Below are positions 21,455-33,624 of a stretch of 41,642 bases of DNA, in pieces. Location: assembly GCA_964566535.1 (NCBI GenBank), contig CAZMIO010000010.1, positions 1-41,642 of the forward strand, given 5' to 3'. A model generated the notes under the pieces. That model had not been told where the DNA came from. It was given only the letters and a program-made list of their open reading frames with translations, and ran no database searches. The DNA is from an uncultured Methanosarcinales archaeon (GTDB lineage: Archaea > Nanobdellota > Nanobdellia > Woesearchaeales > CAZOXR01). Position numbers and translations under genes: made by a program. Each line of letters opens with the position of its first letter. Position 1 is the stretch's first letter.

Positions 21455-21611
21455 GTATTGTAATGTGCTGTATAACTTTATTTAAAGGTTGCTCTTTAGA
21501 AAATGGAATAGAATAAAAATTGTCAGAATCTTCCATGGCTGGTAACTGGTGGTTTGGACCAATATTCGCCTTTAGGTAATTTCTGACATATTATTGGAAA
21601 TTTGTAAGATA

Positions 21612-21884
21612 TTAAGTTTTGGTTTCCATTCCGTGCTTAATTGACATGATTTGTAATAGTTTTAGAGCGTTAACTTCTTTTTTTAGATCATCTATGTGGT
21701 CTTTAAGTTCGTGGATAAGTTCGTAATTGTGCTGAACATTATTGGCATTTTCTTCGACTATTGTAGAAACATCGGTAATTTGGGAGAATTCTGACCTAAT
21801 CTGCTTTATCCAAGCATCAACATTTTCTTTGAAATCAAACATATCTTTTTCCATTTTTTTTGTGAAAATTGAGGGGACAGTCAT
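21612..21884 (-). CDS. Small coiled-coil hypothetical protein (start at 21884, 21854 or 21842)
   Basis: Heptad pattern in NVQHNYELIHELKDHIDDLKKEVNALK. Confidence 0.75.
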   Translation of the reverse strand: MTVPSIFTKKMEKDMFDFKENVDAWIKQIRSEFSQITDVSTIVEENANNVQHNYELIHELKDHIDDLKKEVNALKLLQIMSIKHGMETKT

Positions 21885-22063
21885 TAATTGGCATATTACA
21901 GAGGTTAACTATGGTTTGTAGGTTGTCCTCACCTATGCCATGACTGTCCCTTTCAAATGTGATTTATGTGTGAAAGGGAGAGACAGTCAAAATCGATGGC
22001 ATATTACAGAGGTTAACTATGGTTTGTAGGTTGTCCTCACCTATGCCTTTTGACTGTCTCTTT
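21869..22063. ncRNA. Two tandem structured elements (51-bp identical core in covarying outer stems); candidate cis-regulatory RNA
   Basis: 21889-21939 = 21997-22047; nested stems GACAGTCA/TGACTGTC, GGCATA/TATGCC, GAGG/CCTC. Confidence 0.6.
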
Positions 22064-22074
22064 AATGTCATATA

Positions 22075-22240
22075 ATCAGAAGTGTTCAACACTCCTGAGT
22101 ATGCTCAAAAACATTTAGATTCTTTTGTCATATCCAAGATTTTTGACCTTGGGTAGGCTCAAAAACACTAAAACGTTTTTGACATATCAGAAACAAAAGT
22201 GGTTTCTGACTATGCTCAAAAACAATATTGTTTTTGACAT
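22075..22240. repeat. BIME-like array of alternating short palindromes (three A-B doublets)
   Basis: A = ATCAGAA..TCTGA; B = ATGCTCAAAAAC..TTTTTGACAT. Confidence 0.8.
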
Positions 22241-22655
22241 ATTAGTATAGTTATTAGTATATTAGTAGTATATAAAGGTTTCTATTATACACCACTCTGT
22301 AATATATATTTTGTAGTGTAGTGGTTTTTAGGTAAAAAATGTTTTAATTTGCGATATTTAATGGAATCACGTCGAGGAATTGGGGATGAGGGTTATGTTT
22401 TTTTGGTTGTTGGCGGTGTTTTTTTGGCCCTAAACTTGGTTGAGAAGGAATGGATTTTGGTTGATTTTGGTGGGTTTAGAGGGTCTTGTTTGGATTGGTT
22501 TAGGTAATAGCAAGAATGTTTGAGGTAGTTAATTTGGTTGATGTTGGTTGTAATCTGTTTTTGAGTTGTTTTGTGGTCGGTAATTGAGAAATCATAGAAA
22601 CATTTAAATAAAAAGTTCTCAAGAGTTAAAGATGTAATTATATTGTTATGATTAG

Positions 22656-22800
22656 TGTCAAAAACCACTCTGCTAAATCATGGTGGCATGTGAATTATGC
22701 CACTAACATGTTAAGTGGTTTTTGAGCATGCTCAGAATACCACTTATTATTTGTGGTTTACAGAGTAAACCACCATTCTTAAGATGGTGGTATTCCGACA
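22656..22800 (+). repeat. Composite palindromic element, copy in the parA 5' leader
   Basis: TGTCAAAAACCAC...GTGGTTTTTGAGCATGCTCAGAAT...ATTCCGACA; inverted relative to the 23620 and 33499 copies. Confidence 0.8.
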
Positions 22801-22819
22801 TATTAAAAAAGAGGCCAAA

Positions 22820-23590
22820 ATGACGCATACAATTGCATTTGCGCACTTCAAAGGAGGGACGGGTAAAACTACTTCTTGCCTGAGTATTGCAGGGTATCTT
22901 GCGAAGAACGGTGCGAAGGTTTTGGCGGTTGACCTTGATCCTCAATCTAATTTGACGAGTGGTTTAGGAGTTGATCAGTCTAATCTTAAAAATTCTACAT
23001 TCCATATTATGTCGAGGAGAAAGAGAGCAAGAGCAGTAATTGTGCCGACAAAGATTGAGAATTTAGATATTGCGCCTGCAACTCCTTATTTGGTTCATGC
23101 AACTTTGAGGAAGTATGAAAGGAAGGATGATGCGATGATTCTGCGGAATGCAATAAAGAGGATTAAAAGTATCTATGATTATATTTTGGTAGATACGCCT
23201 ACGTCGAATGGGCATTTTATTGTGAACGGAGTTACTGCTTCTGATTCTGTTGTGATGGTTCTTGATGAAGGTACTTTTTCATTGAAAGGGATAGACTCAT
23301 TCAAGAAAGTTTTTAATTCATATTGTGGGAAGTTAGGATTGAGGTTAAATATTGCAATGGCTTTGGTTTCGAAGTGTGATAAGTCTTTGTTGAACTTTGG
23401 GAAGAAAAGGTATCGGGAAGTTAAGAAAGCTGCAGAAGAGATTTTAGGTACTACCGTTCATACAATTCCTTATTCAGACCATATCCATGAGTCACAAAAG
23501 CTTTCTGTTCCTATTTCACATTATAAGCCCAATAGTCGAGTGGGTAAGGCTTATATGAATGTGATTGGAAGTATCATCGATTTGAAATAG
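22820..23590 (+). CDS. ParA/Soj-family ATPase
   Basis: KGGTGKTT (deviant Walker A), DLDPQSNLT, YDYILVDTP; GAGG RBS before ATG 22820. Confidence 0.92.
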   Translation: MTHTIAFAHFKGGTGKTTSCLSIAGYLAKNGAKVLAVDLDPQSNLTSGLGVDQSNLKNSTFHIMSRRKRARAVIVPTKIENLDIAPATPYLVHATLRKYERKDDAMILRNAIKRIKSIYDYILVDTPTSNGHFIVNGVTASDSVVMVLDEGTFSLKGIDSFKKVFNSYCGKLGLRLNIAMALVSKCDKSLLNFGKKRYREVKKAAEEILGTTVHTIPYSDHIHESQKLSVPISHYKPNSRVGKAYMNVIGSIIDLK

Positions 23591-23619: not shown

Positions 23620-23897
23620 TGTCGGAATTCCACCAATCGATTGGTGGTTTAGGGTGGAATTCTGAGTGTTTGAAATGCAAGGCATTTCTAACATGCTCAG
23701 AAATGTTCCATTTCTGACACATGATCAAATGTCAGAAATAGACATTTCTGAGCACACTCCAAAATCTTTGATTTTGGATGAACCACCTAAATGAGGTTAG
23801 CTATGCTACAAATATGCCACCCATCTGTGATGTGTCGGAAATCGAAGATTTCTGAGCATCTCAAAAATCAGAGATTTTTAAGAGGTGGTTTTTGACA
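23620..23897 (-). repeat. Composite palindromic element, copy expanded by additional short palindromes
   Basis: Same termini as the 33499-33624 copy, with about six extra hairpin units inside. Confidence 0.85.
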
Positions 23898-33498: not shown

Positions 33499-33624
33499 TG
33501 TCGGAATTCCACCAATCTATGATTGGTGGTCAGGGTGGAATTCTGAGCATGCTCAAAAACCACCTGAATCAGGTTAGCTACGCTACACGCATGCCGCCCA
33601 TTTATTGATGGGTGGTTTTTGACA
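33499..33624 (-). repeat. Composite palindromic element, copy upstream of minD
   Basis: Homologous to 22656-22800 and 23620-23897; encodes the last codons and stop of the 957-aa gene. Confidence 0.85.

Follow-up and report, generated by a model that had tools for sequence, protein, structure and literature searches.

Tandem hairpins in the leader of a coiled-coil protein gene of an uncultured woesearchaeal archaeon

A 900-bp spacer on contig CAZMIO010000010.1 (assembly GCA_964566535.1, placed by GTDB in the Woesearchaeales) holds two long hairpins built on the same core, and it raises the question of whether these are RNA structures belonging to the gene beside them or palindromic DNA that happens to lie there. 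On one side of the spacer is a minus-strand small open reading frame (ORF; 21612–21884), the coiled-coil gene of this report, and on the other a plus-strand gene for a ParA-type ATPase. The window analyzed was the complete contig, 41,642 nt, from a genome of 1.45 Mb that is 91% complete and whose organism is present in seawater metagenomes. Below, G000 is this source genome, other G numbers are related genomes, and L numbers are related loci from GTDB genomes and metagenomes. A first-pass annotation made from the sequence alone had proposed a tandem riboswitch-like or protein-binding leader. Comparison with relatives bears out a conserved, covarying leader in which tandem copies recur, while the riboswitch label found no ligand to attach to. 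The element is of old standing in the Woesearchaeota, where it is lineage-wide and single-copy; its homology, position, strand, covariation, single copy, and core constraint are established by the comparisons that follow. As to what it is, the account held here, with moderate confidence, is that the two hairpins are tandem copies of a structured 5′-leader RNA element of the coiled-coil gene, on the gene's strand and probably bound by a trans-acting factor.

The two units and their homologues

The 51-nt core is present in exactly two copies spaced 108 nt apart, as first described. There is no third copy within 3 mismatches in the window, and two matches were seen in 0 of 100 shuffles. Each copy sits within a larger unit (Table 1). 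In the distal unit, a closing helix of 14 bp (P1) is followed by a 5-nt bulge, a second helix (P2, GGCAUA/UAUGCC), an internal loop, and a third helix (P3, GAGG/CCUC) topped by a C/A-rich loop of 22 nt; its arms, 21979–21992 and 22048–22061, are complementary at 14 of 14 positions. The proximal closing stem is 11 bp long (GGGACAGTCAT / ATGACTGTCCC). Eight base pairs are common to both closing stems (GACAGTCA / TGACTGTC), and paired differences flank them on both sides, G-C versus A-T on one and T-A versus A-T on the other; these are the compensatory changes reported at first reading. Compared with shuffles, single units fold with z scores of −5.3 to −6.5 on either strand, and the whole 206 nt with about −6.3. 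The tandem arrangement is not an assembly artifact, because contigs from three independent DNA runs bridge both cores at 100% identity and the leader is identical, base for base, on two metagenome contigs (L132 and L133). Two other identities were set aside by eye: neither a K-turn nor a bulge-helix-bulge fits the internal loops, as judged against the consensus of each, and an upstream ORF within the unit finds an ATG after GAGGAC in few relatives only, in differing frames.

At the DNA level, a search with the 195-nt stretch against 60 relatives gave only chance matches of at most 28 nt, and a tandem match in G034 proved to be an unrelated repeat. Homologues were found instead with two models, R1 built from 14 rows of type A hairpins with no G000 sequence among them and R2 built from type B hairpins, in scans of 169 loci (89 from genomes, 80 from metagenomes). 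A large gene-strand hairpin is present in most of the long leaders, in two main forms. Type A was matched by R1 at 14 of the genome loci (15 units) and 15 of the metagenome loci (17 units), and type B by R2 at 33 and 37, respectively. Together this is 99 of the 169 loci, and every match is upstream of the coiled-coil gene and on its strand. Further leader variants occur within G000's own order, in G001, G015, G038, G045, and G050. All follow a common plan: a P1 with an A/G-rich 5′ strand and a C/U-rich 3′ strand, a covarying middle helix P2, and a nearly invariant apex consisting of GAGG(A)C, a C/A-rich loop, and CCUC/U. The sequence just after P1 varies: in type B it is a run of six U residues (U6) in 12 of 14 rows, and after the two G000 units it is U3 and U4.

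The G000 units belong to the same set. In the 41.6-kb window they are the first- and second-ranked matches to R1, both on the minus strand (distal, 20.1 bits, E 0.009; proximal, 18.7 bits, E 0.021), and they keep these ranks across the 1.45-Mb genome. In a MAFFT alignment of 18 units of mixed forms, their cores fall in register with the “CAUA-N3/4-GAGGAC-A-rich” center of the 16 others. In L043, which is closest by protein (74% identical), there is one unit, and its outer stem is again GACAGUC / GACUGUC; tandem units have arisen independently at L049 and at L172/L175. The element keeps its place and orientation ahead of this gene even where protein identity falls to about 55%.

Covariation in the leaders of homologues, suggested at the outset as a check, was examined with shuffle tests, and the stems do covary. 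In a structure-blind alignment of type A, 98.9% of the cells in 19 pairs can pair, with 40–53% in slid-partner controls; ten of the 19 pairs show double changes, compared with 3.1 in shuffles, a number reached by 0 of 500 shuffles. For P2 alone, in the 18 mixed units that include both from G000, 93.3% of cells are paired versus 76% in shuffles, and there are 22 double-change cells versus 6.2 (0 of 500 shuffles as high).

The same alignments speak to the strand. G·U cells outnumber A·C cells by 22:2 in type A and by 26:3 in type B, the latter including one invariant G·U. Since an A·C cell is a G·U on the opposite strand, this excess places the selected structure on the gene (minus) strand, and it argues against a DNA cruciform. 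R1 and R2 scores are likewise higher on the gene strand (60–100 bits) than on the other (20–39 bits), a gap that comes partly from how the models were built. An initial caveat, that G·U pairs favored the plus strand and so an antisense RNA or a single-stranded DNA (ssDNA) structure, does not survive these counts. Extended to its fullest form, in which the plus strand is the functional one, as an antisense RNA or as an ssDNA origin or centromere element beside ParA, it is extremely improbable. It does have the better fold on its side (−82.5 versus −67.1 kcal/mol over 236 nt), because the stem extensions form G·U pairs there; the core stems in G000 are all Watson-Crick, and only the outermost extensions favor the plus strand. 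It also has an orphan ParA gene 700 bp away. The element tracks the coiled-coil gene and not ParA, however, and the comparative G·U counts and, within the limit just given, the model scores favor the gene strand. No ParA homologue was found at E ≤ 1e-20 in 60 related genomes, so this is not the gene that the element accompanies. A replication origin or centromere was also rejected on other grounds: Orc1/Cdc6 is encoded elsewhere, on contig C4, the GC skew tracks nothing but the coding strand, and the palindromes are those of the dispersed hairpins described below.

Constraint on the core goes beyond pairing. At L134 the protein is 95% identical to that of G000, with 21 differences in the 243 nt of coding sequence (8.6%), 17 of them synonymous, and the downstream spacer is identical at 156 of 245 positions. 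The core has 0 differences over the 35 nt visible before the contig ends, and the adjoining bulge differs. With the core held by selection, the identity of the two copies in G000 and the difference at their P1 junctions are both accounted for, and a very recent duplication is not required. The constrained loop and junction letters also suggest recognition by a partner. The hairpins are supported as structured elements under selection.

The coiled-coil gene, its promoter, and its leader

Homologues of the coiled-coil protein were found in 22 of 61 related genomes. More broadly, relatives of it are encoded in 99 of 148 GTDB candidate stretches and 227 of 493 metagenome stretches, and the protein accounts for 358 protein clusters. 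AlphaFold2 predicts one helix, residues 2–79, with a pLDDT of 93. No family was found for it in Pfam, NCBIfam, a PDB profile search, or the protein Atlas beyond coiled-coil noise. The next-nearest look-alikes in the protein Atlas are virus-labelled clusters (score 0.88, a lead only), and viruses of these archaea may carry the protein as well. Three metagenome loci (L137, L146, and L202) have homologues in densely coding contexts without promoter or leader.

The first possible ATG of the ORF, at 21884, does lie inside the proximal stem, as had been pointed out. As a start codon it is displaced by the homologues: their alignments start at residue 8–13 of the 90-aa reading and database gene calls are 76 aa long, which puts the real start, at 21854 or 21842, beyond the hairpin. 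No Shine-Dalgarno (SD)-like word stands between the proximal unit and the 21854 AUG (none within 18 nt of the AUG), and the GAGG words in G000 are 60–200 nt upstream of it. Among relatives, the start codon as a rule has no SD of its own; SD-like words near the ATG were seen at 56 of 157 loci. The start codon is 2–20 nt past the last closing helix in compact leaders and 20 nt past it in G000. In RNA thermometers of the fourU or ROSE type, the gene's own SD, a few nucleotides before the AUG, is paired in a hairpin; a thermometer of this kind was rejected here, there being no such SD near the AUG to sequester.

In relatives the TATA box is immediately followed by a TATAC-N6-GTATAC palindrome. Strict pattern searches found the palindrome at 122 of 157 loci and a TATA directly before it at 83. 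The block between TATA and predicted transcription start may well bind a regulator, to judge by this conservation. The TFB recognition element (BRE) and TATA box first placed at about 22269–22283 coincide with the block conserved in relatives. At the 83 loci measured, the TATA-to-ATG distance has a median of 171 nt (range 44–372), and just five leaders are 80 nt or less, so this gene typically has a long leader. The one in G000 measures about 390 nt, near the roughly 370 nt originally claimed, and the hairpins lie between the conserved promoter and the gene. In the short leaders, the promoter is followed at once by a AAGAGGUG-type SD and the ATG.

In many type B leaders another conserved hairpin, unlike the first, separates the type B hairpin from the ATG. 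Its sequence opens with GAGGCAGCGGCAAAAC and closes with GUUUUGCC...CCCCUC, and it was seen at L057, L060, L071, L075, L086, L087, L089, L093, L099, L108, L110, L115, and L118. Leaders with two elements are thus frequent in this family.

Table 1. Features of the coiled-coil gene and its leader in the window
Feature	Position	Strand	Basis
Coiled-coil protein gene, 80 aa (alternative start 21842, 76 aa)	21612..21854	minus	Homologues in relatives
Proximal leader unit, same core as distal	21873..21950	minus	Predicted fold; second-best R1 match
51-nt core, proximal copy	21889..21939	minus	Exact repeat
Linker	21951..21978	minus	With unit edges can make 9-bp helix 21947-21955 / 21971-21979
Distal leader unit	21979..22061	minus	Predicted fold; best R1 match in window
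51-nt core, distal copy (P2, P3, loop)	21997..22047	minus	Exact repeat
Six small hairpins	22076..22239	minus	55-bp repeats (“iterons”, 22096-22245) of the first-pass annotation
TGTCA-A-run...T-run-TGAGC hairpins	22214-22239, 22157-22184, 22101-22131	minus	Repeat pattern; two are among 37 genome-wide pattern hits
Spacer hairpins	22187-22209, 22134-22152, 22076-22098	minus	
TATAC-repeat block, operator-like, between TATA and predicted transcription start (~22245)	22240..22268	minus	Conserved in relatives
BRE/TATA of coiled-coil gene promoter	22269..22282	minus	gaaacctttatata-type block ahead of homologous gene in relatives

Long units among dispersed small hairpins

The leader of G000 also contains six small hairpins, upstream of the long units. 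They make up the three neighboring 55-bp repeats of the first reading, each a TGTCA-A-run...T-run-TGAGC hairpin plus a spacer hairpin, and these repeats belong to a separate, genome-wide hairpin family that had been missed. The pattern TGTCA-RAAA...TTTY-TGAGC has 37 hits in G000, in which the stem sequences vary and complementarity is kept. Members are also found at 22656–22800, 23695–23753, and 33544–33624, and a 72-nt long form occurs about 12 times. Two of them often face each other head to head, with the palindrome TGAGCATGCTCA as the junction; there are 28 such sites versus 0 for the reversed control, and nine of these junctions are in divergent, 12 in tandem, and five in convergent spacers, and two are at contig ends. 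The palindrome has a patchy distribution in 19 of 61 genomes, with 28 copies in G038, 23 in G058, 10 in G027, and nine in G050. A word TT(C/T)TGACATATTA that makes up the outer flank of dispersed hairpins is found three times nearby (21580–21593, 22231–22244, and 22793–22805), at ParA just before an SD and start codon.

These small hairpins come and go. They are missing from the L043 leader, and in L134 a different hairpin has been inserted immediately ahead of the ATG, which points to rapid gain and loss. Only they vary; the long unit is kept in L132, L133, L134, and, diverged, in L043. Whether the long unit might itself be a randomly dispersed miniature inverted-repeat transposable element (MITE), which at first reading was named as the outcome that would undo a leader function, was checked directly: it occupies one locus in G000 and likewise one in each of the 10 other genomes tested. 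In G000 the 195-nt stretch is in one place, and R1 gave nothing above noise elsewhere in the genome. Two of the dispersed hairpins are weak R1 matches. In five type A genomes R1 matches the leader only (two units in one genome), and in five type B genomes R2 matches exactly once, inside the fetched locus.

This bears on the possibility that the long units are selfish palindromic DNA, REP/BIME- or PATE/MITE-like, settled in a permissive leader, with their structure a property of the DNA. REP, BIME, and REPIN elements in bacteria and PATEs in haloarchaea are palindromic hairpin elements with many dispersed copies. The likeness is real: the units are hairpins with a conserved stem base, which they share with the dispersed family in G000, and the small hairpins there are dispersed, often head to head, and present in all kinds of intergenic spacer. 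Three members of the family are in this same leader, the 95%-identical relative has its extra hairpin before the ATG, and correction within a palindrome in DNA can give paired changes. Unlike such elements, the long units are single-copy in all 11 genomes just counted, syntenic and oriented before the same gene even where its protein is only about 55% identical, and constrained in sequence, the core being unchanged at 35 of 35 positions while neutral sequence has strongly diverged. Cruciforms would leave the strand-specific G·U excess unexplained. Nor was a RAYT/Y1 transposase found; Y1 (PF01797) had no match in the 91% complete G000, and control genomes were positive in 6 of 14 cases. Selfish DNA is therefore regarded as quite improbable for the long units. 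The likeness of their P1 base to the dispersed repeats may reflect a common origin or a common binding protein.

Expression, possible mechanism, and known systems

One metatranscriptome run yielded a single contig of 154 nt that matches the leader at 22056–22209 with 100% identity; the rest of the 2.2-kb stretch was uncovered. As a sign of transcription, an RNA-library contig of this kind is a weak hint. It could also be taken to suit a different product, a small stable non-coding RNA made from the promoter, consisting of one or two hairpins closed by P1 and acting in trans or in a ribonucleoprotein, with the gene reached by read-through only. Conservation of the promoter is very strong, the pairing of the two element ends in P1 favors stability, the type B element ends in an invariant U6, which is a good archaeal termination signal, and the contig lies on the leader and not on the gene. 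A small RNA is nevertheless distinctly unlikely. In every case the element lies immediately upstream of this one gene, often with a gap of 10–25 nt to the ATG and no space for a second promoter; relatives without hairpins keep the promoter directly on the gene; the G000 units have no U-tract of 5 or more; and the single contig gives too little evidence for a comparison of levels.

Comparison of the window with Rfam 15, the covariance-model search proposed at the outset, found no known family: there were 0 matches at the gathering threshold, and the 14 sub-threshold ones (E ≤ 10) in 21500–22800 were far below it. In 12 related loci the only match was one tRNA, and no tRNAs were found in the window. 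The parts of the literature on riboswitches in Woesearchaeota/DPANN and on motif discovery that could be consulted contain no description of the element. To our knowledge, very few regulatory RNAs are known in archaea, and none came to light for the DPANN archaea. The element is probably a new family of a known kind, the cis-regulatory leader of riboswitch or protein-binding type.

Of these two types, a true tandem riboswitch would have each unit act as an aptamer for a small molecule or ion, the pair making the opening or closing of P1 cooperative or sharper. Much about the locus would suit this. A conserved, covarying, structured domain on the sense strand of a 5′ leader is what a riboswitch looks like; this one is single-copy, has invariant loop and junction nucleotides and a core constrained beyond the needs of pairing, recurs in tandem, and in type B has a conserved U6 after P1 as in a terminator-type platform. 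The arrangement recalls the glycine riboswitch (Rfam RF00504), in which two aptamers stand in tandem: as in tandem riboswitches, two similar covarying domains follow one another in a sense-strand 5′ leader, once per genome and before one gene. Unlike the glycine riboswitch, the element has no Rfam match and no link to metabolic genes; it is found only before the coiled-coil gene, which has no known metabolic or transport role and gives no hint of a ligand. The G000 units are simple stacked hairpins without a multi-helix junction, duplicated recently or homogenized rather than co-evolved as docking aptamers. They are followed by no U-tract longer than 4, and there is no SD near the AUG for them to sequester.

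An alternative pairing that might serve as the switch was noted early, and the competing linker helix does exist. A role for it as a switch is less certain. On the gene strand the fold that contains it is at −64.0 kcal/mol, 3.1 above the minimum free energy of −67.1, with pair probabilities of 0.15–0.18, which makes it a minor conformer; it trims both P1 helices and leaves them unbroken. On the plus strand its probability is at most 0.005. The linker was seen in G000 alone and is not conserved, and a switch there, though possible, finds no comparative support. Overall, a riboswitch is considered unlikely.

Other known systems resemble the element in part. Autoregulatory protein-binding mRNA leaders of the bacterial and archaeal ribosomal-protein type, candidates for which are listed in PMC7247131, are similar in having a conserved hairpin with invariant loop and junction nucleotides before a short, highly expressed gene, and in a structure that includes a mimic of a ribosomal interaction, here the SD/anti-SD pair. 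The 3′ end of the G000 16S rRNA is GAUCACCUCCU, and the invariant P3 GAGG/CCUC, together with AGGUGA before it in G000, therefore copies that pair. Most relatives have AAGAGG as the 5′ strand of P1, and where the hairpin is missing this word is the actual SD. Unlike these leaders, the protein downstream is not ribosomal and has no known RNA-binding fold. Intrinsic-terminator attenuators and 5′ stabilizers offer another parallel, in the long perfect helix between promoter and start with an A-run on its 5′ strand and a U-run on its 3′ strand. At least five U residues right after the hairpin, a terminator-type feature, are present in type B relatives (U6) and not in G000 (U3, U4); we know of no established hairpin dependence of archaeal termination. 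A plain stabilizer hairpin would not need the invariant apical sequence.

With a factor-bound leader as the preferred account, a mechanism can be sketched. A trans-acting factor would recognize the invariant apical part, so that repeated units offer two sites; it would most likely be a protein, and one guess at a candidate is the gene's own oligomerizing coiled-coil product. A very stable helix ending close to the AUG would limit access by the ribosome, and binding of the factor would hold the helices closed beside a start codon with no SD. The outcome might be to set translation, mRNA stability, or, in relatives with the U6 tract, read-through, the U6 after the type B P1 perhaps adding premature termination. 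In G000 the unit was duplicated, and a block of six small dispersed hairpins, unrelated to it, was inserted downstream of the promoter and ahead of the units.

Several points weigh against this account and keep confidence in it moderate. The RNA contig is of low depth and stops short of the units, carry-over of DNA could explain it, and it gives neither strand nor ends. The coiled-coil protein is only predicted to be a single helix, without a known RNA-binding fold, and the binding partner of the hairpins is still just a candidate. At five of the 83 loci measured the leader of 80 nt or less has no hairpin, so that the element is dispensable in some relatives. Close relatives gain and lose dispersed hairpins in this leader, and the P1 base (UCA-A-run ... 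U-run-UGA) is common to that dispersed, probably mobile family. The plus strand of G000 folds slightly better, as given above, and the paired stem differences between the G000 units could have arisen by templated correction of DNA within the palindrome. The E-values of R1 for the G000 units are modest genome-wide (0.32 and 0.75), and two of the 14 rows behind both R1 and the type A covariation figures come from L049, a genome flagged as unpublished. Order-wide scans with R1 and R2, of 151 genomes each, gave 0 matches at E ≤ 0.001, with stricter filters and no known-positive genome among those scanned, and are uninformative.

A more specific proposal is put forward tentatively, and on balance is doubtful: that this is the first DPANN-specific class of cis-regulatory RNA, a sensor hairpin that mimics the SD/anti-SD pair, has a C/A-rich loop, and binds either a ligand or the downstream coiled-coil protein, with tandem units tuning the response. 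If true, the ligand-binding branch would make it a true archaeal tandem riboswitch, and the protein branch a new kind of RNA-binding autoregulator. DPANN archaea are hard to grow, and gene regulation in them is almost unknown. A structured leader tied to one widespread coiled-coil gene, with about 100 natural variants in one-unit and two-unit forms, can be tested in vitro, and it could offer a first way into post-transcriptional control in these archaea and into what the coiled-coil protein does. The locus also shows how a conserved leader is told from the mobile hairpin repeats that mimic it.

Beyond the promoter, the spacer and its far flank have features of their own. The ParA/MinD-type ATPase gene (22784–23590, likely start 22820) has pairs of dispersed hairpins on both sides, and no ParB/SegB-like partner gene is evident downstream of it; it may be an acquired gene or belong to a mobile island. 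Between the leader promoter and ParA, 22340–22650 is G/T-rich and C-poor, with GC skew up to 0.89 and no convincing ORF on either strand. In the relatives L043, L026, and L139, this position is taken by a divergently transcribed gene that encodes a membrane protein of 79 aa and has a conserved TATA of its own, about 30 nt away from the leader promoter. No homologue of that protein was found anywhere in G000, and when the region was compared as a decayed copy of the membrane-protein gene the similarity was not significant. The region may be a decayed gene or an unrecognized RNA.

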